From a virus (lineage: Duplodnaviria > Caudoviricetes), in the IMG/VR virus record IMGVR_UViG_3300042890_000355, positions 1 to 60,714 of that record: a DNA stretch of 60,714 nt; one strand, written 5' to 3'. A program made the translations under genes and the position numbers. This document shows, piece by piece, positions 2,304-58,969 of this stretch (the stretch's first letter is position 1; each line of letters opens with the position of its first letter). The notes below the pieces were generated by a model. The model was not told the DNA's origin, did no database searches, and was given only the letters and a program-made list of their open reading frames with translations.

Positions 2304-4387
2304 CGTCTGCCGTCCGGTCTGATGTCAATACGGGTAGAGCCAAGCTGCCATGCAGTTCCTAGATTGCTAGAGCTTACCTTGAGGATAAGTTGACGGCCAC
2401 GCACTCGTGTGTTGACTTGACCCGTAAAACCTTCAGTTACCGTATAGGACGCACCTGTTAACTTGCTAACCCCAGCCGTAACTGCCGTGCCCGTGCCCGA
2501 ACCCGAGTTCTGCATAGGATACAAAGTGTACGTAACTTGCGGAGTTGGAGATGCGTCAGAGCCTGAGAACGTCAAGTCAGGGAGCATCCTCCAGACAAAG
2601 CCTAAATGCTCACCATCTTCAATGTCAAACTCAGCAGAGGAGATGTAAGCTTCAATACCAGATGGCGTACCAGTCTCGTTATTGTCTAAGCCAAACTCTT
2701 GATTGACCAAGTTGTAGTTGTATGTAGCAGCAATAGGGAAGTCCCTTAGACCAGAGTCCAGCCAAGCTGTTCGCTCCATCGTGCCGTAGTACCAAACTTT
2801 CTCAAGGTAGTTGTACACAACATAACGGTTAGCAACTAGACTTCCAGCCGCGCAGTAGAACCACCATACTTCATTGAAACCCTCGTTAGTACTGGCAAAC
2901 ACTTGCTGGTTCTGCTGAAGGTTAATGTCTTGATAGATGTACCTACGCAGGTCACAGCTAAGTGTTTGTAACCGACCATCGTACAGATAGAACTTATCCA
3001 CACCCATCCAGTACACAACACCAGAAGCCTGAGCCGCCGCATTCTGACCCAAGATGGAGATGTTATCTCCCATCAACTGGCTAGACCAGACTACGGGTGG
3101 GCCAATGTATTGGAGAGAATAGATGGCTGAGTCAGTCCACACTAAAATCTCTTGACGGGTTTGAACGGCGGTCACAATGCTAGAGCCGTGGGACAGAGTA
3201 ACACTACCCGCTTGATTGGTAGCAGAAGGTGTCCAATTGACCACAGACTCCTGATCTGACCAACGAATTAACATGGGGTTTTGAATGGTTGAGCCGTAAT
3301 CATTACAGCCAAACGCAAATACAAACCGGCTAATGTCAGATACAAATAGGTAATTCTGAATGATTGGAACGTCAGAAGCGTTTGCTAAGCTGGTAACGGG
3401 TATACCATTAGGCATGATGTAGTGATCGCCAGACTGGGTTCCAGTCGTTGTAATAGCCGCGCCGCCCACAGTTGCCGCTAGGTTAAATGTATTACCACTG
3501 GCGTTAATGACGTAGTAAATCGTTCCGGGAGACAAACCAGTTGGCAGGGCGGCAGGATAGCCACTGTTTGTAAAAATGACTGGAGCGCCATTTGGCAAGC
3601 TATAAGCGGCAGTAACTACCGCAGGAGAAGCTATAGTAATTGTAGCTATGGTAGGGTCTACGCCATAACCAGCATCCCAGTAATAGATTGGGCCACCACG
3701 GAAACCGTAAACTAAGTCTTCACCAAAGTTGTTTTGGCTCCACAAACGTAGAGCAGAAGTAGATGTACCGCCAAAGCCCCAAACCCCTGCACCCCATGTA
3801 CCAGCACCCCAGCCAGCTAGTGGAATCTCGTATGGATCACCTACGTTAATCTGATAGATAGCATTTACATCTGTACCACCGCCAGCCGCCACTGTTGAAG
3901 TAGCCGCAGTAGCAGCCACGATTGTGTAAGTATTGGCATCAATAACGGTAACCTGATATTCGCCATTTAAATCAAGACCGCCTACAGGAGCTACGTTGCT
4001 AAAGGTTACAAAGTCATTGGTTACTGCGCCATGGGCTGTATCTGTAACGGTAACTAAAGTGAGTAGATTGGTTGTGGAAAACGGATTACTTAAGATAGCC
4101 GCCGCACGAATAGGCGTGATGTCGTTGTAGTTACCACCCAACTCAAGGTAGAACTTAAGGTTAGTACCCACTCCAATTAGGTTTAAGTTGTCTAGGGTGA
4201 TCCAGTTCCACAATGACCGGCACAGACCTTGGAATGTGGACACGGAAATACGTGCCCAGCCACCAATCTTCTCAGGCGTACCCTGACGAAACCGCACTTT
4301 ATCGGACTCATACCACCCACCTTCGTTGGTATAACGGGTGTTCTCCCGGTTAACTCCCGGCTTCAGTACAAGTTTTTTAAGCGCCAT
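2300..4387 (-). CDS. Tail tubular/stabilisation protein (P22 gp10 / T7 gp12-like nozzle)
   Basis: 695 aa beta-rich protein; LIRWSDQE motif and C-terminal RVRGRQ...IRPDGRR typical of podovirus nozzle proteins; position in tail module. Confidence 0.7.
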   Translation of the reverse strand: MALKKLVLKPGVNRENTRYTNEGGWYESDKVRFRQGTPEKIGGWARISVSTFQGLCRSLWNWITLDNLNLIGVGTNLKFYLELGGNYNDITPIRAAAILSNPFSTTNLLTLVTVTDTAHGAVTNDFVTFSNVAPVGGLDLNGEYQVTVIDANTYTIVAATAATSTVAAGGGTDVNAIYQINVGDPYEIPLAGWGAGTWGAGVWGFGGTSTSALRLWSQNNFGEDLVYGFRGGPIYYWDAGYGVDPTIATITIASPAVVTAAYSLPNGAPVIFTNSGYPAALPTGLSPGTIYYVINASGNTFNLAATVGGAAITTTGTQSGDHYIMPNGIPVTSLANASDVPIIQNYLFVSDISRFVFAFGCNDYGSTIQNPMLIRWSDQESVVNWTPSATNQAGSVTLSHGSSIVTAVQTRQEILVWTDSAIYSLQYIGPPVVWSSQLMGDNISILGQNAAAQASGVVYWMGVDKFYLYDGRLQTLSCDLRRYIYQDINLQQNQQVFASTNEGFNEVWWFYCAAGSLVANRYVVYNYLEKVWYYGTMERTAWLDSGLRDFPIAATYNYNLVNQEFGLDNNETGTPSGIEAYISSAEFDIEDGEHLGFVWRMLPDLTFSGSDASPTPQVTYTLYPMQNSGSGTGTAVTAGVSKLTGASYTVTEGFTGQVNTRVRGRQLILKVSSSNLGTAWQLGSTRIDIRPDGRR

Positions 4388-32513: not shown

Positions 32514-34004
32514 TCAATAGTAAACGTGCTTCTTTCTGAAGCCGATTAGATCTTCACGCTCATCTGAATCGAGCCGCAAAAACCCACCTTGTCTGAAACG
32601 AATTAGTCCTTGTACACAAGCATCAACCAAGTCATCATGGTCTGCATTCGGAAACGCAGCCATCTGCTCGATCAACTCGTGCGCCCACCTCGTATCAGGT
32701 GCCCATACTTTACCCGACTTGAACAAATCAGTCACCGAGTTTAGTCGCACAAATTTATCATTACCTCTAGACGGCGTATATTCACTCACCACAATCCCCA
32801 TCCGCCGGAGTTCAAAAATTAACGGAGCGCCAGCAGCTTTAGCCTCCACAACAAAAGCATCCGGCTCCCAATCCTTATAGTGGTTAAACGCTTTCTCCTT
32901 CAATTCAGGAAACTCCATCCTTTTCTGGAAAGCGTCTAACAGAATGATATTTATATCCTCTGGATTCTCATTCAGATGAAAAACGCCAAGGGTCACGCAG
33001 GCGGAATAGTCTGACCTTTCATTCTTAGTGAATGCGGTATCCCAAGACTGGATGATAAATTCACACCTAGGAGGATCTTCCTTCTCCCAGATCTTCCACC
33101 ACTCTCGTTTAACTAAAGCACCTTCTTCTCCCGTAGGGTTCTGCTGATACTGTGCATTCCATTTACTAGGAGGCAACTCATCCCGTAGTGCCTCTAATTC
33201 TTCTAAGCTCCAAAACTCTGGCCACAAAGCTTTCCCACTGGGCATGATCGCGGGCAGTTCTATCACCTCCCACTCTTCCCCTCTATCCCTACTTGCTGCA
33301 TCCTTAATGATCCTACCAGTCAGGTCTTTCTCCGACCATCTGGTCATAACGACAACAATAGTACCTCCCGGCTGTAAACGTTGTCTAGGCCCAGAGGTGT
33401 ACCATTCATAAATCTTGTCAAAGACCGTAGGGTCTCCTTGAGCTAAAGCCGCTTCCTGTTCAGAGTGGGGATCGTCAATAATCAAAAGATCCGCACCCTT
33501 ACCAGTTACAGTTCCGCCAACGCCGATAGCGAAGTACTCTCCGCCGCCATTAGTAGCCCACCGGCCAGCAGCTTTGGAATCTTGCCGTAGAGAAACATTA
33601 GGAAATATTTTTGAGTACTGTTCACTGTCTACTAAGTTCCTAACCTTGCGGCCAAAGCCAACGGCGAGGTCAGCCGTGTTCGAACATTGAATAACCTTCT
33701 TATTAGGGAATTTCCCAAGGAACCACGACGGCAACAGGTAACTAGCAAACTCTGACTTAGTATGCCGAGGAGCCATATTGATGATTAATCTCTTAATCTT
33801 CCCATTAGCTACATCTTCAAACTTCTTAGCCATGAGAGAATGATGTCTTCCAGAAACAAACCCCGGCCACATTGTCTTGATGTAGTCCATGAAAGACTCC
33901 TGCGCCTTCTCCCGCACAAGCGCACTCTTATAGTCCTCCACCTCAGCCAAGAACAAATCCTTCTCGTTCTCCGGCAAACTATCAATCAATTCTTCCAGCT
34001 TCAT
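32514..34004 (-). CDS. terL: Terminase large subunit
   Basis: APRHTKS Walker A, LLIIDDP Walker B, MTRW, SWDTA and HDDLVDA nuclease motifs. Confidence 0.95.
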   Translation of the reverse strand: MKLEELIDSLPENEKDLFLAEVEDYKSALVREKAQESFMDYIKTMWPGFVSGRHHSLMAKKFEDVANGKIKRLIINMAPRHTKSEFASYLLPSWFLGKFPNKKVIQCSNTADLAVGFGRKVRNLVDSEQYSKIFPNVSLRQDSKAAGRWATNGGGEYFAIGVGGTVTGKGADLLIIDDPHSEQEAALAQGDPTVFDKIYEWYTSGPRQRLQPGGTIVVVMTRWSEKDLTGRIIKDAASRDRGEEWEVIELPAIMPSGKALWPEFWSLEELEALRDELPPSKWNAQYQQNPTGEEGALVKREWWKIWEKEDPPRCEFIIQSWDTAFTKNERSDYSACVTLGVFHLNENPEDINIILLDAFQKRMEFPELKEKAFNHYKDWEPDAFVVEAKAAGAPLIFELRRMGIVVSEYTPSRGNDKFVRLNSVTDLFKSGKVWAPDTRWAHELIEQMAAFPNADHDDLVDACVQGLIRFRQGGFLRLDSDEREDLIGFRKKHVYY

Positions 34005-34300
34005 TCAAGGTTCCGAAAGTTTATATAAACCGGACGAATCGTCCTACCCTGTCTATCCACCTTCTTTATAACACCTATATTCACAAGCCGCTTAATTATT
34101 TTTGAAGTATTTGACATACTCATCTTTCCACGCTGGTGAGCTATGTCCTTCAAAGACGGGCTAAACCCATACCTCTTCCACCACTCATCAATAATCAAAA
34201 ACACTTCCTTCTGTACCGGTGTCATCTCTACCTCCATACACTCGTTAAACGTCATGTCACTTTTACGTGACACCATTTTCTTATTTATCTGTACTTTCAT
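34001..34300 (-). CDS. LexA-type winged-helix DNA-binding protein (no peptidase domain)
   Basis: MTPVQKEV...YGFSPSLKDIA...LVNIGVIK...RTIR. Confidence 0.8.
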   Translation of the reverse strand: MKVQINKKMVSRKSDMTFNECMEVEMTPVQKEVFLIIDEWWKRYGFSPSLKDIAHQRGKMSMSNTSKIIKRLVNIGVIKKVDRQGRTIRPVYINFRNLE

Positions 34301-34307
34301 AAATCGC

Positions 34308-34406
34308 AGAAAACTTTTAATTTTTCTAGAAAACTTTTAATTTTTCTACATCCTAGAAAACTTTTAATTTTTCTAGAAATTTTTGTAGAAAACTTTTAAT
34401 TTTTCT
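34308..34406. repeat. Cluster of four 20-bp quasi-palindromes AGAAAACTTTTAATTTTTCT
   Basis: Exact copies at 34308, 34328, 34355, 34387; further copies at 6757, 22549, 35213, 47377, 53597. Confidence 0.95.
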
Positions 34407-35130
34407 AGGCCGGGGGGTCTTCCCTAAACGCATGGGTGGGTATGCTGCCAGAAACTTTTTCTGGGGGCGGGGGTTCTTCCGAATCTGATTCTTGTGGGGA
34501 TCGTTCGGGTTGAATAGTATGTATAGGATCTCGGGACTCCGCAACGTCGTTTGGGGGGGTCGGGAGTGGGTGGGTCTCGCCCGCAAGCTCGCGCAAAAGG
34601 GTGTCCGCCTCTACAAACGTCACATCCTCCGCGCCCGCCTTCAGCATCTCACGCAACTGCCCCATGATCTTAGCCTTCGTATCCTCGCTCGACCTGATGT
34701 GACGCACCTCGCGCCTCTCGGTGAACGCAGACACCTCTGTCACTGTGCCGAGTACCTTACTCGCCTGTACCTTCGTCGCCTGTTTAGCCTCAGGGTCAAT
34801 CAGCACTTGGACAAGCGATTGGATTACCAACGACCTCAAGGCTTCAGGGGTGCGATGTTTACTCGCCTCAATCGCCAGCTTATAAGCTTCTATCTCTGCC
34901 TGAATCCTTACGTCCTTGGCTAGCTCGTATGGCTTACTCGCTAGCGTGTGTTTACTCGCGTTCGGTTTGTACGCTTTGCGGTATGCGTCAGCCTTCGTAG
35001 AACCCCTTGCGACCTCTTGGGCGAATGACTGCATCTTGGGTGTGATCGCCTTACGGGAAACGCCAAGAATGTCAGCCATTGGCACTTGCTCTAGACCTTC
35101 CTTGATCTGCTTCCTTGTGAGTGTTTTCAT
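34405..35130 (-). CDS. terS: Terminase small subunit (probable)
   Basis: TPKMQSFA...ADAYRKAY HTH, ASKVLG; upstream of terL. Confidence 0.7.
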   Translation of the reverse strand: MKTLTRKQIKEGLEQVPMADILGVSRKAITPKMQSFAQEVARGSTKADAYRKAYKPNASKHTLASKPYELAKDVRIQAEIEAYKLAIEASKHRTPEALRSLVIQSLVQVLIDPEAKQATKVQASKVLGTVTEVSAFTERREVRHIRSSEDTKAKIMGQLREMLKAGAEDVTFVEADTLLRELAGETHPLPTPPNDVAESRDPIHTIQPERSPQESDSEEPPPPEKVSGSIPTHAFREDPPA

Positions 35131-47491: not shown

Positions 47492-47779
47492 TTACTCGCA
47501 GCGTTTAAGAATTTCAAGTGCTTCTTGCGCCGAATTCACTATTACCAGCATCCCACCTGTCCACTCATCAAAGAACTTCTGCTCGGCCTCGGTTAGTTTC
47601 CTAGCTGACGGTACTTTGTCCCCGTCTTTGACCTCCATAAGCACCGTATAGCCCTTGTAAGCCACTAAAAGGTCAGGGATGCCATCACCCTGCGAGATGA
47701 TCCTTACGAACGCTCCTGCGCCCCGTAATGCGTCCACGATTTTGTTCTGGTTAGCGTCGATTCTGTTGGCGTATCTCAT
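47492..47779 (-). CDS. VRR-NUC / PD-(D/E)XK endonuclease (resolvase-like)
   Basis: GIPDLLV...LMEVK...LTEAEQKF. Confidence 0.85.
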   Translation of the reverse strand: MRYANRIDANQNKIVDALRGAGAFVRIISQGDGIPDLLVAYKGYTVLMEVKDGDKVPSARKLTEAEQKFFDEWTGGMLVIVNSAQEALEILKRCE

Positions 47780-47817: not shown

Positions 47818-47846
47818 TTGCAAAATTAAAATGTAGCAGGTATAAT
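47818..47846 (+). promoter_or_regulatory. Sigma70 promoter of the pentamer array/RAMP operon, overlapped by an inverted repeat
   Basis: TTGCAA(47818)-17bp-TATAAT(47841); TACCTGTTGCA...TGTAGCAGGTA inverted repeat 47812-47842. Confidence 0.85.
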
Positions 47847-47862
47847 CAGTTCCAACCTATCT

Positions 47863-48326
47863 GGTTTAATGTGGTCTGGCAAGTTATGGCGGGACGAGGC
47901 GGTGCCCGGTCGGGCATGGCAGGGAACTGGTAACAGTCGATAGGGAATTAGCAATAGTTCTCCTTCGAGTGTTAGGCACGGTCGGGCAAGTCTCGGCACG
48001 GTGAGGAGAGGCGGGGATAGGCAGGGTACGGCACGGAAAGGTGCGGCAGGGAGCTAGAAATAGTCGATAGGGTATTGGCAACAGTACCACTTCGAGTGTT
48101 AGAGGAATGGCTGGATGCGGTCAGGCGAGCAAAGGTCAGGTTTGGAGGGGTAAGGCAAGGGCTGTTTACAGCGGGAAGTTATTTAACAAGATAACTTTTC
48201 GGTGGTAACACCACTAGGTTGGGTCTGGTGTGGCAAGGCGAGGAATGCTTAGGAAGGGTCTGGCAAGGGCTAATGTAGCGGCTATTAGATTGGCAACAGT
48301 CTTATGGTCGATGCAAATTGTGCATC
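47863..48326 (+). ncRNA. Four-unit putative guide-RNA array: phased GG(Y/A)NN pentamer tracts each followed by hairpin handles (VIPR-like)
   Basis: Tracts 47863-47922 (12), 47975-48049 (15), 48104-48158 (11), 48217-48266 (10); 40/48 pentamers start GG and position 3 is never G; each tract ends GGCAR-GG then stem-loops, several with GNRA loops. Confidence 0.85.
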
Positions 48327-48342
48327 AATTAAAGGAAACAAA

Positions 48343-48912
48343 ATGAAATCTATTAAAGTAAAACTCTCAGGCTCATCTGCTTTACTCATGCACTCTGATC
48401 GCTTTGCGAACCCGTTAGACCCACTAACTAAGGCTCACAAAGAACTGACAGGCAAGCGCAAGAAAACTGACGATGACCATATCGCCATCGCTAGAAGTGA
48501 ATTCATTGGTGGCTGTTATTGGAATGAAGACACTGGCTTCTTTATTCCTGCACAAAACCTAGACTCATGCCTGATCGCGGCGGCTAAGCTTCAAAAGCTT
48601 GGCGTTAAATTCAAGCAGGGCGTACAGGTATTGGAAGACGAGCTACCCATCGACGGCTTTAAGTCCGTCACTCCCGAGAAGCTTTGGGAAAACCCAAAGA
48701 ACGTAGATGCCCGTGGCGTTAAGGTAGGCATGGCCAAGATCATGCGCTACCGCCCCATCTTTCGCAACTGGTCACTGTCTGCCACTGTGATGGTGAATGA
48801 AGATGTAGTTAACCTCAATGAAGTTAAGAAAGCTTTGGTTGACGCTGGCAATTTGATTGGCTTGGGTGATTACCGTCCCCGCTTTGGCCGCTTTGATGTG
48901 GAGTTTGCATGA
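48343..48912 (+). CDS. Stand-alone Cas7/RAMP-like protein (putative Vipr-type effector), 189 aa
   Basis: AAAGGA RBS and ATG 48343; beta1 IKVKLSGSSALLMH, FFIPAQNLDSCL (RAMP IPxxxLK-like), C-terminal G-loop IGLGDYRPRFGRFDV. Confidence 0.8.
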   Translation: MKSIKVKLSGSSALLMHSDRFANPLDPLTKAHKELTGKRKKTDDDHIAIARSEFIGGCYWNEDTGFFIPAQNLDSCLIAAAKLQKLGVKFKQGVQVLEDELPIDGFKSVTPEKLWENPKNVDARGVKVGMAKIMRYRPIFRNWSLSATVMVNEDVVNLNEVKKALVDAGNLIGLGDYRPRFGRFDVEFA

Positions 48913-49391
48913 GCGACAATCCAAAACTATTTCCCGCTTGGAAGCAGGCAGTTAAAACTTTATTGGACAGCGGCCTTACATACGGAAGCGTACTCAAGCG
49001 CAGTTACATTTCCGAGTTGTGTGATGTGCCAAAGCCAGTAGACATTGACGATGTTCGCAGGTATGACCTTGAAGTGCTTCGCTGCATCACAGAGATCAAA
49101 GACATTCTGCTAACAGCCCACTGCATGCTAATGGTCAGTGACCATGCAGGCAACTACATCATCATCGAGCCTGAGTCACAAACTCAACACGCTGTTGATG
49201 CAGGTGTTAAAGCAATCAGTCGAGAGATGAAGCGTATGGCTATGGGCGTGAGCTTTACCAAGACTGATTTACTCACAGACGAAGGCCGTAAGAAAAACGC
49301 AGATGCTCAGGCAAAGATCTCAAAGCTGGCCGGAATGCTAAGCATTGAGAAGCGTGAGCTTCAGCGTATATCCGACAGGAGTCAGCCATGA
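48909..49391 (+). CDS. Accessory protein coupled to the RAMP gene, function unknown
   Basis: ATGA overlap with the RAMP stop; possible winged helix (GNYIII) followed by a long helix. Confidence 0.7.
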   Translation: MSDNPKLFPAWKQAVKTLLDSGLTYGSVLKRSYISELCDVPKPVDIDDVRRYDLEVLRCITEIKDILLTAHCMLMVSDHAGNYIIIEPESQTQHAVDAGVKAISREMKRMAMGVSFTKTDLLTDEGRKKNADAQAKISKLAGMLSIEKRELQRISDRSQP

Positions 49392-53614: not shown

Positions 53615-56600
53615 CTACTTCATTGACTTACGAACATCTTCAGCTTGTTTAGCTAGCATGGAGATCAACTCTTTCATCTGGTCAATCTGCTCTCGCTTGG
53701 TAGCCCCGTCCATACCCGTGTCTGCTGTGACCACTTGAATCTGCTTACGGATGTTAGCCATCTGCTTAGATGTCTGGGTGTACATCTTCTGTAATGCAAT
53801 CTTGTCACCCTTCTCCTCATAAATCTGCTGGACTTTATCTATCTCACCAATCTCAGAGTAATGACGCATATCCGCAAAGGCTTGCTGAATCTGTTTGTTG
53901 TTCTCGTAGAACGAAGTGGTGTAGAAAGATTGGTTAGCGGGAAGAGACTTAACAAATCCAAGACTTGCTCTATCCATCCACTTAGTATCTGGGTACTCAC
54001 CCTCTTTAAACGGGGCAACAGCGTACATAGAAGTGGTAGCTGCTGTGCCGCCGAGCCAGCCGAAGTAACCCTTAATAGCATAGTCCACCTGAACTGGGCT
54101 TAACTCTGCTTTTTCTGGCAAAGCTATGTTTAATACAGGAGCCAAAGCCAAAGCTAGTGGACTGGTGTTCTCTGTCTTACGCTCAGCTTTAGACAAGGCT
54201 TCCATACCCGCAGTCTCAATAGGTGAGCCGGTGAAGCTATCCTTATTGGAGTACAGATCAACAATAGGTTTGAAGATCTGCGGCAACGGGTTCATCGCAA
54301 ATGTATCCCACACCATACGGCTAAGGGCATCTGTGAATTGCTTACCTTCTGCATTCTCATCAAAGATCTGCTCGGCTGTACGCTCGGCAATAGTTCCAAG
54401 AGCACCAATCTCAAATGGCTTAGGAATACGAAGAGCCGCTTCCATGCCGGGTAACTTGATCCACCAGAAGTTATCCCGATCCCAGTTGTCCCGCTTTTGG
54501 TACTCTTCGTCGTCTTTAAATCCATAGTACAAAGCAAGAGAGGCAAGGCACACAGCACCAGAGATGATAGAGAACGCTTCTGCTTTCTTCTTATCACTCA
54601 GATCCAACTCTTTACCTGTCATTGAGTTGTACAGGACACGGCCAGTAGGTACGATGCCATCACGACCAAGCTTGTACAGACCTTGAATACGGGCATTCAT
54701 GAACGGTACGACCTGAGTCAAGTAACGGAACGCACTCCATGAACCTTGCATAGAGAAGTCCATCAAGTCGCGAGCTTCGTAAGAGGCTTGTAAGTGAGAT
54801 AGACCCTGCTCTCGTAGCTGGTTGTAAAGCGCCATGCGGTTAGCAGCTTCAGACTTGTTACCCGCATCTTCGTATGCAGACCATAGCTTAGCCAAACCAG
54901 CTTTGATCTTGTCTGGTGTATCTAGAATGTCGGCCTCTTTAACACCTTTGGCCAGTAATCTTTTAATTAACTTTGCCTGATTACCTTCATAAGCGGTACC
55001 AAAGTTAAAGATAGCACCACCGGCCAGAGCAGAAATGTGTGCAGGGTTGTTCTTATCTGTGGCTACCCAGCCCTCAACCACGTTGGCAAAAGGATTCTTC
55101 TTCAAGCCGGACACGGCCATAGCCTGAACAGAATCACGGAACAAGTTGTTTACTTTAAACGCAGGAGAGATGGTAACGCCGTACTGCAAGATGTTCTTGA
55201 AGTCACGAGACACATCAAGGAACTTAGACTTTGGCCCCATGTATCCGATAGAGGTGATCGACTCAAGCAAGAGAGGATCTTTAATGGTGTAGTAAACAGG
55301 GTTGCCGTCTTCCATAACCTTTACGGTATCTGGGCCGGCTTCTGTGGCTTTCTCTACGGCATCTAGCTTCTCGGCATCCTTGACCGTAGTCACAGCGGCT
55401 TGGTTCTTCATAGACGCAGACAGGATATGACTCCAGTTACGCAGAGTGTTTTCCATCAAGTCACCGAATGGTCGCTCTCCTCCGCCTTTCAAAGCTTTAG
55501 AGAACTGCTGACGGGTCAAACCTGCTGAAGTCTGAGCACCCTGAAGATCACCGTCTTCCATCTGACGATAGAAAGGAATGTAGTAAATATCCCGAACAAA
55601 GTTGTCGTAGCTGAACTGGTCAATTAGACCTTGATCTAAAGCCACATCCAAGACGGAACGGTTTAGATTATTCATATCTTTAAGGACAGCAGCATAGACC
55701 TCAGCACGGGGCTTGCCGTTAATCGTACCTTCAGACAACTGCTTGCGATTGGCCACCATGTAGTCCATGTCAGGACTGCGTGATTTCTTTTCTGGAGGTA
55801 AATTAGATTCACGGTTCAACGCAACCCACATCTGGTAGCGGTCTACCTCAGAGCCAACAGGCTTGAGTGTCTCAATCAGACCCTTGGTGTTGGGTTTAAT
55901 GTTCAATGCACCGCCGTCGTTAAAGACATGACCGTTAAACAAGATACCCTCAAGAGCGCCGTCAACAGTCTTAGACAGACGGGCTTGCATGTAGCCGACA
56001 GGCGAGTAGTCTTTGATCGTTCTGTACTGGTCTGCAATACCCTGAGCCAGACGTTGCCAGAAACGATCCTGCATGTCAGTAATCTTCTCAACAATCGTTC
56101 TAGTCTGTGGCTTGAAGACACGGTTAGCCGCATCTGTAAACTCTTGGTTTACACCCTGCATAGTCTCAGCGGCAAGAGGCTTTTGTTTCTGTAAGGCAGT
56201 AGAGACTTTCTGCTTTACCTCGCTAACAGACTTAGGTATCTCCATCTGGTCTGTCATCTCTGAGTAGTCAACTTCACCCTTATCAACTTTTACACCTTTA
56301 GGCTGTTTAGTCTGAGCAAGCCTGTCTACCAAGTTCATAACTTCGGTAAGAGCGTTAACATCTTTAATACCAAGCAACTCTGCAACCATACGAGTAAATG
56401 CTGTCCATGCACTGCGACGACCGCCATAGGAGATTTGCATTAACTCATATTGGAACTCTGGATTAGTCATTGCCTCGGCAGTGAACTCACGCTCGTTAGT
56501 CAGGCCGTAGAAGTCTTTACCTTGACGGCGCAGTTCTTTCTTAACGTGCTTGTATAGCTTTTCAATCTGTTCAACAATAGGTTTCTGACGCTCAGTAGGA

Positions 56601-58969
56601 TAACGCTGTGCCTTAGAGATCAATCCATGTAGTGTTTCGTGAGCGTTTGTGTGCTCATCGCCAGCGTAAGCCTTAGCCATCTGAATGGAGTCATCAGCGT
56701 AACGGTACACGCCAGCCACACCAGCACCTACGTTACCCGGCTTCTTCAGCTTAATCTTTGTAGCTACGCCACGACCCAACTCACCAATGCGCCGAATAGC
56801 TGGGTTCTTACTCTTAGCCAAAGTCTCAGCTAATTGTGCAAAGTTTCCAGCGTCATTAGCAGCACGAACCTCTAAGTTGTTTGATGTAATAGGCATCCTT
56901 GCTTTGAATTCAGCAAGGTTTTTAGGCATCTCAGTACTTGGAGTAGGTGGTTCAACTTCTACAGGAGGAGGTTCCACTGGAGGGGGAGGTTCAACCACAG
57001 GAGGTCTACCTGAAGTACCGGGAGCAGGAGGTTCCATCTCACCATATACCTGAGTAGCAGGCTTGGTAACAGGAGGACGCTCTGGGCCTTCTGGTGTAGG
57101 TGTTAGCGTAGCACTAACAGGCAATGTGCGATCACCACGAGGCTTACCAACTTCAGCAGAAATAAACCAAGGTTCACCGTTACCTTGATAGTTCAACGGC
57201 AAAGGTTTGCCGGCACGTTGCTCGGCGGCAATAGCAGCTTCTACATCTTCACGAGTAACGATACCAGACTCAAAGTCCTTAACCAAACGCATAGACGCAG
57301 GCGTATTAGTACGTCGAGCAATCTCAATGTATGCGTTAACTGGGTCAATGATAGGCGTGGACTCAGGTTTGTTAATAGCCGTGCCTTCCAAGCCTTTAGT
57401 AAACTTAACTGGTACGTCCAAAGATTGAATAGCAAACTTACCCGCATCTGTTGGGTGAGGAACAATAGTCAGGCTATTAGGATCACCGCCTTGGTTTTGA
57501 AGCATGTTACGCATCACCAACAAACGGTTCTTTGCGGCACGTTCTTCAAGGGGACGGTTGTCTACAATCTTAGGTACAGGTGTGTCTTCCACGGTCACAT
57601 CTGCTGGCATAACGCCGGGAGTTTTAGATGACGCACCAGTAGGAAGTCCTGCCTCTAAACGCAAGCGATCAATCTCAGCTTGCTTGGCTTCCAACTCTGC
57701 ACGAGGTGTAGCTTGTGGCATCTGCTCATTCAAGCTAGGCTGTACCACGGGAGTAGAAGCGGCGCGAGCAGCCTTCTCTTGTGGTGATTCAGGAAGCGTA
57801 CCAGCAAGAGCCTTTGCTTCTTCATCGGCTTTTTGCTGGAGCATTAACAGACGCTGACGATTAGCTTCCTCAGATGTCAGCATCTCAGGAGTAGTTTCTT
57901 CTGGACGGGTAACACCAGTAATAGCCTCAACTTGCTGTTGCAACGCAGGCTGAACAACAGGTTGCTCTGGAGGAGGAGGTGGTGGTGGCTCAATCTCAGG
58001 AGCAGCAGGACGACGAGCCAAGCCAGCCGCACCACCCAAACCTACACCACCGATAGTGGCCATAGCCGCAGCTTCACCCAGACCTTCAGTCAAACTCTGC
58101 TCAGGTTTAACCTGTTGCATGGCCAAGTTAGAAACAAACTTACCGCCAACCTCTTCAGGAATCTCACCCACTGTCTCACCAACAGCAGTACCGCCAGCCG
58201 TTCTAAGACGACCAGTAAGACCAGCCGCTCCTTTACCGGGAACACCTGCCAATACTTCCTCAAGCTGACGAGCACCGGGTAGGCGCTGAGCCAAGAGAGA
58301 AATAACACCGGCGGAAGCACCAGCTTGACGGGCTAAAGTTAAAGCACCCTGAGCGGCTTCAGTATCAGAAGCACCTTTACTCTTAAGTTCTTTGTAGATG
58401 TTCTCGTATGCGTTAGCACCTACGTCAGCACCTTGCTGTACACCACCAGCACCAACCGCGCCGGAGACAGCCGCTTTACCAGCCGCAGCTTCGCCCGCAC
58501 CCAGACCTCTAGCCGCCATACCAACGCCACGAGCAGCGCCAAATGGGACTAATAGTTGTGGAGCTTGCTCAGCCAAGAATGTAAGGAGCAGTGCAGGATC
58601 TTTAACAGTCTCACCAAGTGCAGTTCCAAATGCTTGGAACTGACCTTCCTTAGCAGACTCAGCAATCTTCCTTGCCCGCTCAGCCTCACGAGCCTTAAGC
58701 CCAGCAGACTTCATCTCCTCAGCATACTTCTGGAGATCTTTACCAAGCTCCATAGAAGTACTGTCCTGCATGTTGCCAGTCACCAAACCAGCAAGCTGGC
58801 CGGGTAAAGCAACAAGAGAACCTATACCACCTACGACACCAGCACCGATGTCCTTGGTAGCTTCCCCAAACGTTCTCTCTGTAGTAGCAGGAGCTTTAGC
58901 TTTGGGCTGGAATTTTGACCATGGCCCCTCTTGGGCAGCATAAGATTCCCAAGGTTTATTATCGGCCAT
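53615..58969 (-). CDS. Large internal virion/ejection protein with zincin-like HExxH and LPD38-like C-terminal domain
   Basis: 1784 aa; AHETLH...EFTAEA; VPFMNARIQG and RIPKPFEIG motifs. Confidence 0.75.
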   Translation of the reverse strand: MADNKPWESYAAQEGPWSKFQPKAKAPATTERTFGEATKDIGAGVVGGIGSLVALPGQLAGLVTGNMQDSTSMELGKDLQKYAEEMKSAGLKAREAERARKIAESAKEGQFQAFGTALGETVKDPALLLTFLAEQAPQLLVPFGAARGVGMAARGLGAGEAAAGKAAVSGAVGAGGVQQGADVGANAYENIYKELKSKGASDTEAAQGALTLARQAGASAGVISLLAQRLPGARQLEEVLAGVPGKGAAGLTGRLRTAGGTAVGETVGEIPEEVGGKFVSNLAMQQVKPEQSLTEGLGEAAAMATIGGVGLGGAAGLARRPAAPEIEPPPPPPPEQPVVQPALQQQVEAITGVTRPEETTPEMLTSEEANRQRLLMLQQKADEEAKALAGTLPESPQEKAARAASTPVVQPSLNEQMPQATPRAELEAKQAEIDRLRLEAGLPTGASSKTPGVMPADVTVEDTPVPKIVDNRPLEERAAKNRLLVMRNMLQNQGGDPNSLTIVPHPTDAGKFAIQSLDVPVKFTKGLEGTAINKPESTPIIDPVNAYIEIARRTNTPASMRLVKDFESGIVTREDVEAAIAAEQRAGKPLPLNYQGNGEPWFISAEVGKPRGDRTLPVSATLTPTPEGPERPPVTKPATQVYGEMEPPAPGTSGRPPVVEPPPPVEPPPVEVEPPTPSTEMPKNLAEFKARMPITSNNLEVRAANDAGNFAQLAETLAKSKNPAIRRIGELGRGVATKIKLKKPGNVGAGVAGVYRYADDSIQMAKAYAGDEHTNAHETLHGLISKAQRYPTERQKPIVEQIEKLYKHVKKELRRQGKDFYGLTNEREFTAEAMTNPEFQYELMQISYGGRRSAWTAFTRMVAELLGIKDVNALTEVMNLVDRLAQTKQPKGVKVDKGEVDYSEMTDQMEIPKSVSEVKQKVSTALQKQKPLAAETMQGVNQEFTDAANRVFKPQTRTIVEKITDMQDRFWQRLAQGIADQYRTIKDYSPVGYMQARLSKTVDGALEGILFNGHVFNDGGALNIKPNTKGLIETLKPVGSEVDRYQMWVALNRESNLPPEKKSRSPDMDYMVANRKQLSEGTINGKPRAEVYAAVLKDMNNLNRSVLDVALDQGLIDQFSYDNFVRDIYYIPFYRQMEDGDLQGAQTSAGLTRQQFSKALKGGGERPFGDLMENTLRNWSHILSASMKNQAAVTTVKDAEKLDAVEKATEAGPDTVKVMEDGNPVYYTIKDPLLLESITSIGYMGPKSKFLDVSRDFKNILQYGVTISPAFKVNNLFRDSVQAMAVSGLKKNPFANVVEGWVATDKNNPAHISALAGGAIFNFGTAYEGNQAKLIKRLLAKGVKEADILDTPDKIKAGLAKLWSAYEDAGNKSEAANRMALYNQLREQGLSHLQASYEARDLMDFSMQGSWSAFRYLTQVVPFMNARIQGLYKLGRDGIVPTGRVLYNSMTGKELDLSDKKKAEAFSIISGAVCLASLALYYGFKDDEEYQKRDNWDRDNFWWIKLPGMEAALRIPKPFEIGALGTIAERTAEQIFDENAEGKQFTDALSRMVWDTFAMNPLPQIFKPIVDLYSNKDSFTGSPIETAGMEALSKAERKTENTSPLALALAPVLNIALPEKAELSPVQVDYAIKGYFGWLGGTAATTSMYAVAPFKEGEYPDTKWMDRASLGFVKSLPANQSFYTTSFYENNKQIQQAFADMRHYSEIGEIDKVQQIYEEKGDKIALQKMYTQTSKQMANIRKQIQVVTADTGMDGATKREQIDQMKELISMLAKQAEDVRKSMK

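Follow-up and report, generated by a model that had tools for sequence, protein, structure and literature searches.

Systems named VIPR, for Viral Interference Programmable Repeat, are CRISPR-related DNA silencers that were first described in 2026 and, by that account, comprise Vipr, a minimal RAMP protein, together with a vap accessory gene (10.64898/2026.04.26.720920). The same preprint describes vrRNAs of 9–16 GGY/NN repeats, with internal degeneracy, followed by a conserved 3′ tail. Double-stranded DNA (dsDNA) is recognized by the NN dinucleotides with one base skipped, mostly at the codon wobble, and the reported targets are competing phages, satellites and prophages, with no protospacer-adjacent motif and no self-targeting (10.64898/2026.04.26.720920). 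In a type II system the vrRNAs would be RNAs of ~100 nt that co-purify with Vipr, and the ribonucleoprotein would bind dsDNA and silence transcription. In phage SUSP1, reprogramming the NN bases moves repression to a new DNA site (10.64898/2026.04.26.720920). The Vipr ribonucleoprotein is reported to form a helical filament, each repeat being taken up by one protomer, in which H17, K33, R138, D177, W178 and R179 make the GG/Y3 and skip-base contacts (10.64898/2026.04.26.720927), and SUSP1 vrRNA4 is reported to silence the excision recombinase of a satellite through a six-unit, codon-aligned footprint (10.64898/2026.10.15.759431). A Pseudomonas clade, described from a P. fulva prophage, mostly targets lysis–lysogeny regulators of resident prophages (10.64898/2026.04.26.720920). 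Here we analyze a 60,714-nt IMG/VR virus record (IMGVR_UViG_3300042890_000355; completeness estimate 96%), whose full length we call the window, and conclude that its region 47863–48266 is almost certainly an array of guide RNAs belonging to a type II-like VIPR system in an uncultured phage. The one-skip, wobble-aligned, rival-element reading of such tracts has been in print since 2026 and is not new.

Region 47863–48266 (+) consists of four pentamer runs, T1 to T4, each in a single register with the pattern GG(Y)NN and 10–15 units long, a length that, as in SUSP1, falls within the 9–16 units of VIPR guides. The runs occupy a divergent intergenic region between a small, nuclease-like leftward gene (47492–47779, −) and a rightward operon that begins at 48343; exonuclease, ERF and SSB-like (single-stranded DNA-binding) genes lie further downstream.

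47863–47922, + strand: tract T1, 12 units, NN TT GT CT AA AT GG GA GG CC CG AT AG
47975–48049, + strand: tract T2, 15 units
48104–48158, + strand: tract T3, 11 units
48217–48266, + strand: tract T4, 10 units

GG opens 40 of the 48 units, and GGY opens 33; G stands at position 1 in 46/48 and at position 2 in 41/48, and positions 4–5 take all four bases. A scripted cut into fives returned, letter for letter, the NN strings that a sequence-only reading of this DNA had listed, and its description of the four strings as mutually unrelated holds, with no common run of four or more NN. The periodicity is sharp. Between 47780 and 48345, GG–GG spacing peaks at 5, 10, 15, 20, 25 and 30 nt (32, 34, 30, 29, 29 and 26 pairs), versus 2–15 pairs at distances from 2 up that are not multiples of 5, and 17 at distance 1 (GGG runs). 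The best 50-nt segment holds 10 in-phase GG; when these 563 nt were shuffled 200 times, the figure averaged 4.3 and never exceeded 6. Across the whole contig, segments with at least six in-phase GG are confined to the four tracts and a G-run at 34525–34582, and the minus strand has none. The period-5 signal at 34525–34582 is a G-run within a coding frame, and we set it aside as unrelated to the tracts.

Searches for known elements returned little. Rfam 15 covariance models at gathering score matched nowhere in the window, ARAGORN found no tRNAs, and blastn found no counterpart of the 566-nt tract region among 50,697 phage records. A tandem-repeat scan of the window found no CRISPR repeat–spacer array, and no Cas family was found among the 53 window proteins (Pfam, PHROGs), bar a weak Cas4-like PHROG match of a PD-(D/E)XK exonuclease. 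In lacking detectable repeats and Cas genes, the locus differs from class 1 CRISPR.

Directly downstream of the tracts lie two genes with counterparts in the type II VIPR system of Escherichia phage SUSP1:

48343–48912, + strand: vipr, 189 aa, minimal RAMP (Cas7-like); phrog_4652, E 2.7e-67; 40% identity to SUSP1 Vipr
48909–49391, + strand: vap1-like accessory gene, 160 aa; phrog_5926, E 5.7e-16

We set the vipr start at 48343 because all 14 aligned homologues start there. The 189-aa product has no Pfam family. By BLASTP it aligns with SUSP1 Vipr (ALH47069.1) over its full length (189 aa; E 7e-57), and both proteins fall in phrog_4652. An AlphaFold model built from an alignment of the 14 homologues reached a pLDDT of 89.8 and a pTM of 0.82. 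In Foldseek it matched 65 PDB chains at E ≤ 1e-3 (E 3e-5 to 1e-3; TM about 0.5); among the matches listed, all are subunits of type VII or type III CRISPR complexes, such as Csm3, and these top the list. The model has the RRM core of a small stand-alone RAMP, and the G-loop motif GLGDYRPRFGRF is conserved among homologues; a RAMP fold for this Vipr is thereby supported at the level of a predicted structure. The residues aligned to the SUSP1 contacts are H17, K33, R137, D176, Y177 and R178. H17, K33, R137, D176 and R178 are invariant in the 14 homologues, and position 177, W in SUSP1, is Y in 12 and F in 2. The predicted RRM-based RAMP fold, with one protomer per fixed guide step, likens Vipr to the class 1 Cas7 backbone (Csm3 of type III-A, Cas7 of type VII), whereas the step itself is described as 5 nt with two read bases in VIPR and 6 nt with five read bases in class 1 CRISPR (10.64898/2026.04.26.720920).

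The accessory gene is more diverged. SUSP1 Vap1 belongs to the same family, phrog_5926 (E 1.1e-75), and BLASTP between the two proteins gave E 1e-7 at 20% identity. The Vap model has a pLDDT of 85.2 and found no PDB match at E ≤ 0.001 in Foldseek; its best row is a winged-helix linker histone (E 0.12), and the DNA-binding fold predicted for Vap is unconfirmed by these weak winged-helix-like PDB rows. In phiSUSP1 (KT454805.2), Vipr (ALH47069.1) is followed by a 146-aa gene (Vap1, ALH47068.1), and the pair is flanked by unannotated gaps of ~450 and ~530 nt, as published. The two loci thus share a two-gene vipr–vap1 operon, the same two PHROGs and 40% Vipr identity. They differ in layout: in the window a promoter is followed by all four units, upstream of the genes, but of the SUSP1 units one is upstream and three are downstream.

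We searched for target sites with exact seeds of consecutive NN separated by a fixed skip; loci and contigs other than the window carry L numbers. The sequence-only reading had worked out patterns with one target base skipped per NN, had suggested that the skipped base could be the codon wobble, and had asked beforehand for gapped searches to be compared with shuffles. The T3 seed (NN 2–9, 1-nt skip) found 62 exact matches in viral contigs, versus 17 for the same eight NN in shuffled order, which contained no diverged family, and 20 for the true order at a 2-nt skip. Forty-eight of the 62 lie in frame on [L/F/I]WAQDNQFGK codons, and the matched open reading frames (ORFs) tested, four of four, belong to PF10991/phrog_112, the gp2.5-like ssDNA-binding and annealing proteins. 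Scored over NN 1–10, the guide fits 20/20 in L238, which is an exact match to the example pattern written out in that reading, ATnTGnGCnCAnGAnAAnCAnTTnGGnAA, and 19/20 in 46 contigs; the unforced NN10 fits 45–46 of the 48 SSB sites, and NN 11 (GGCAA) misfits. The skipped bases vary freely, with 28 distinct footprints in 35 distinct proteins of 46% median identity. The nearest cultured relative of the targeted SSB is that of Bordetella phage BPP-1 (43% identity). The T3 pattern at up to two mismatches was not found in four metagenome-assembled genomes (MAGs) that hold relatives.

T2 points to a large serine recombinase. Its seed (NN 1–8, 1-nt skip) has at least 120 matches in viral contigs; among the matches listed, 120/120 lie in frame on TRKST[D/E][D/E]G with 16/16 bases. 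Both matched ORFs tested are large serine recombinases (PF00239 and PF07508; phrog_95 integrase), with the motif N-terminal. The sites comprise at least 97 distinct footprints in at least 115 distinct proteins of 61% median identity, and the match, at eight units, is longer than the footprint of six units with which SUSP1 vrRNA4 is reported to function (10.64898/2026.10.15.759431). The remaining NN do not extend the recombinase match (best total 21/30), and NN 9–14 found no match. The module AC CG AA TC AC GA GA GG CT (TRKSTEEGL) recurs in at least 15 related loci at varying tract positions, and T2 therefore looks like this module fused to other sequence.

T1 was resolved through its relatives. 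Its eight-NN seed matched once in the viral contigs (L256, 18/24), which we take as chance because the match lies within a 48-aa frame. Guides of two related loci, L015 and L021, share 4–6 NN with T1 and then run beyond it, and the three tile one site. A bridging pattern, composed of T1 NN 7–11 plus the continuation from the overlapping guides, matched six metagenome contigs. In three of the six (L323, L326, L327) T1 NN 2–11 fit at 20/20, ten of the bases being unforced; the other three score at chance level. The site coincides, in frame, with the VLKMGEGPRM codons of a ~152-aa ORF that belongs to no Pfam family and has a weak PHROG match. The misfits are the first NN (TT) and the last (GGCAG), with 20/22 over NN 1–11, and the 10-NN pattern had no match in genome contigs. 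As separate observations on L327, a 300-aa ORF without a family adjoins the T1-target gene, and a further ORF on the opposite strand ends in a similar GRTRGRKPA motif (167–799, −; 1162–1617, +).

Guide and coding strand share the same sense in each of the three target families, and the skipped base is codon position 3. The proposed skip equals the published 1-nt rule, with 20/20 sites for both T3 and T1, and its placement at the wobble stands as well. The expectation that competing phages or the host are the targets was borne out for viral and mobile DNA (SSB, serine recombinase, small gene) and not for host genomes. No lysis–lysogeny regulator target was found for the window guides, a difference from the Pseudomonas clade.

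The phage does not appear to target itself. On both strands of its own genome, T1–T4 reached at best 14–19 of 20–30 bases at skips 0–2, none above the maxima of 100 NN-order shuffles, and at skip 3 the patterns find the tract itself only, in agreement with the absence of a full self-match in the sequence-only reading. No resolvase domain was found in the own genome, with the control positive in 12 of 14 genomes; a search for the T1-target protein and PF10991 gave no matches, but the PF10991 control also matched nowhere, so this negative carries no information. Since neither such sites nor a gene with a resolvase domain occur in the phage's own genome, the array is likely used for interference with competing phages, prophages or satellites.

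For a clade-wide comparison we ran 123 distinct guides of related arrays against 1.1 Mb of fetched target loci. At ≥90% NN match, six guides scored at skip 1 and none at skips 0, 2 or 3, compared with 0, 0, 1 and 0 among shuffles at skips 0, 1, 2 and 3. One of the six, found in L024 and L031, is seed-independent: it fits, at 18/18, IVVYKIDRL, which is another conserved motif of the serine recombinase that T2 reads.

Several results weigh against the VIPR reading of the region. T4 has no target above chance in viral or genome contigs: its 29 viral matches, most of them from two clusters that are nearly identical (NLVKDIYSLF, NLVNDIYSLV), do not improve past the forced seed, and its 9-NN pattern has six matches in genome contigs, in unrelated MAG taxa. 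T2 fits over only the first 8 of its 15 units. Its 3′ half alone has 10 scattered viral matches with no common frame (best 24/30, with an in-frame stop) and its junction pattern (NN 3–12) has 0 matches in metagenome contigs, which is why we say that the complete T2 fits nothing sampled. In the clade-wide comparison, five of the six top guides are not seed-independent, because the target database was built from 1-nt-skip seeds, and each guide represents one or few independent events, because its target matches are mutual homologues. The T3 skip-2 control contains one 20/20 match (L310) and one 19/20 match (L317). Chance predicts about 0.08 matches at 20/20 among the 20; we consider the lone L310 match, in 230 nt of an IMG/VR contig, to be probably chance, and it is no rival to the family-wide skip-1 match of T3. 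The T3 pattern at up to two mismatches was not found in the 401 genomes searched in the family of one of the MAGs with relatives, a Rhodoferax. Among contigs from four RNA-library runs, relatives 95–99% alike span vipr–vap in three runs, and one run carries an array resembling that of L003; these contigs speak to the presence of relatives in three metatranscriptome runs, not to transcription, ends or processing.

Part of this evidence would suit a real VIPR array whose matches are by-products of decayed or recombined guides, the true targets lying in host or satellite DNA that has not been sampled. T2 joins a recombinase module that recurs elsewhere to a half that matches nothing, T4 is without a target, and the host is hinted at by MAG bin labels only. 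Yet the only units of T1 and T3 that fail to match are the first and/or the last, which is semi-conserved; the recombinase module persists in several diverged arrays, and a second motif of the same gene is matched by another guide. In our estimation by-product matches are quite improbable.

By reading codon positions 1 and 2, which stay constant within a protein motif, one guide of 8–10 units covers the 97 or more integrase footprints, or the 28 SSB footprints, given above. This raises the proposal, on which we are evenly divided, that guides of this freshwater clade are written against protein motifs and not against one rival genome, with arrays built of reusable ~8–9-unit modules that move between tracts and recombine. 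As a separate observation on guide length, some 17–20-unit tracts in L004–L009, L013 and L032 resemble two ~9-unit guides fused without a tail, the recombinase module forming the 3′ half.

Every tract is followed directly 3′ by a tail of ~50–60 nt that folds into hairpins, and a promoter-like element precedes the first:

47818–47846, + strand: sigma70-like promoter, TTGCAA–17 nt–TATAAT, from a consensus scan (10/12 matches), with the predicted start a few bases before T1
47863–47974, + strand: vrRNA unit 1, T1 tract plus type-A tail (47923–47974)
47975–48103, + strand: vrRNA unit 2, T2 tract plus type-A tail (48050–48103)
48104–48216, + strand: vrRNA unit 3, T3 tract plus type-B tail (48159–48216)
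48217–48327, + strand: vrRNA unit 4, T4 tract plus type-C terminal tail (48267–48327) with three hairpins

The array thus contains three tail forms, A (T1, T2), B (T3) and C (T4), a difference from SUSP1. The tails covary: the central hairpin has five compensatory pairs across 33 type-A tails and seven across 37 type-B tails, and nine of the 22 predicted pairs of the type-C tail show compensatory changes across 20 loci. The flanking helices never vary, and there are two competing pairings, so covariation says nothing on a SUSP1-type pseudoknot. Before each tail the closing unit is semi-constant. It reads GGCAG in T1 and T2 and GGCAA in T3 and T4, the GGCAR noted by the sequence-only reading, and in related arrays GGCA[A/T/G] closes 84 of 137 distinct unit ends, the NN being AA, AT or AG in 103/137. 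That reading took the pentamer for a handle rather than guide, which accords with these ends and with the misfit of the last NN at the T1 and T3 targets.

Linkage of tracts to vipr is general. Fifty related viral loci, fetched by Vipr protein (47–99% identity), all carry one to eight tracts adjoining vipr on the same strand, with 6–23 in-phase GG pentamers. In 48 the tracts are upstream, ending ~70 nt before the start codon, and in L048 and L049 they are downstream only. Promoter-like hexamers followed by GGTTT... are a layout common to the related loci L002, L013 and L016. Vipr homologues also occur in 130 deposited phage records. The three cultured phages that we opened, Felixounavirus VpaE1 and Pseudomonas phages LESphi2 and Medea1, all have tracts and a gene of ~150–160 aa behind vipr, and a vap-sized gene directly after vipr is present in SUSP1 too. 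Medea1 (59% identity) and LESphi2 (49%) carry the nearest cultured Vipr relatives, and their clade resembles the window array further in its GGC-rich pentamers and GGGCT...CAGC tail starts. The window pentamers are mixed GGC/GGT, whereas those of the Felixounavirus relative VpaE1 are mostly GGT. When homologous guides of diverged phages are compared (T3 versus L002), the NN are kept and position 3 drifts. As an observation in its own right, L032 holds two complete VIPR systems, divergent and back to back, each with array, vipr and vap (274–1826, −; 2565–3564, +).

Two readings that dispense with guides can be judged at this point, and both were dropped after the homology and target results. 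The first takes the tracts as a cis-acting leader bound by a TRAP-like multimeric RNA-binding protein, one subunit per GG, with the NN as filler and the operon's translation or termination under control. TRAP sites are spaced triplets, which a 5-nt period with a fixed G-rich part resembles, and the tracts do lie between a promoter and the first gene of the operon. A leader of this kind is nonetheless highly unlikely: the fit of the NN strings to foreign genes, in register with the codons, goes far beyond chance, diverged phages conserve the NN of homologous guides but not position 3, L048, L049, Medea1 and SUSP1 have tracts downstream of the genes, and the partner protein is homologous to a tested DNA-targeting Vipr. 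In the second, the G-rich strand would fold into two-tier G-quadruplexes or form a stable R-loop, and so provide the adjoining recombination and replication genes with an origin or a primer site for replication. The G content of the tract region's + strand (33%, versus 17% C) and the downstream exonuclease, ERF and SSB-like genes would suit such a site, which would need neither covarying structured tails nor foreign-codon NN strings; the tracts, moreover, track vipr and not replication genes in 50/50 loci and in Felixounaviruses, and we assign this origin a negligible probability. The VIPR guide array is the reading that we carry forward.

In that array, the promoter at 47818–47846 would drive one transcript comprising the four vrRNA units and running into vipr and vap1. 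Our own data cover the anatomy of the locus, its conservation, protein homology, the predicted fold, tail covariation and the sequence matches; RNA processing, filament formation, DNA binding and silencing would then proceed as the preprints describe. By homology to SUSP1, Vipr protomers would each bind one pentamer, bury GGY and present two NN bases, and the filament would pair with dsDNA, two bases read and one skipped, and silence the bound gene. The guides would work in coding-strand sense with the skipped base at the wobble, on WAQDNQFGK for T3, VLKMGEGPRM for T1 and, through NN 1–8, TRKST(D/E)(D/E)G for T2. Sense-strand, wobble-skipping matches, structured tails on GGY/NN tracts and a recombinase among the targets are points of likeness to SUSP1. 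In contrast, the window phage is uncultured and of freshwater type, and its targets are family-wide motifs (SSB, serine recombinase), not one satellite.

The MAG labels of six relatives read Rhodoferax, Betaproteobacteria, Methylotenera, Pseudomonadota, Proteobacteria and, in one case, Cyanobium; bins are weak evidence, and the array probably sits in an uncultured phage with a betaproteobacterial host.

Elsewhere in the contig we noted three features. At 34308–34408, four to five copies of a ~20–32-nt AT-rich direct repeat (AGAAAACTTTTAATTTTTCT) lie between a small ORF (34001–34300, −) and a gene with a weak terminase small-subunit match (34405–35130, −), and may be a packaging or regulatory site. 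Between 9981 and 16359 (−), four paralogous genes of ~375–390 aa, with a 595-aa gene interposed, have RCC1-like repeat matches (phrog_7220, phrog_4219) and weak tail-protein matches; they resemble a diversified cassette of tail-fibre or receptor-binding genes. A polyvalent protein of 1784 aa is encoded at 53615–58969 (−); it contains an LPD38 domain (PF18857, E 1.9e-35) and matches phrog_18222.

The VIPR code, two bases read and one wobble base skipped, was here re-derived from raw sequence alone, and it names likely targets of an uncultured phage. To VIPR biology the work adds a densely sampled environmental clade of 50 viral loci with about 123 distinct guides, as well as signs of guide modularity. 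Three natural targets were decoded, and two of these are protein motifs shared family-wide, near-universal in serine integrases and in gp2.5-like ssDNA-binding proteins. These natural guide–target pairs are ready for gauging the number of matched units needed. The matches suggest that the action of some vrRNAs extends to entire gene families in rival phages; if guides are indeed written against protein motifs, VIPR would interfere at the level of families, with a broad spectrum and a guide repertoire made of modules.

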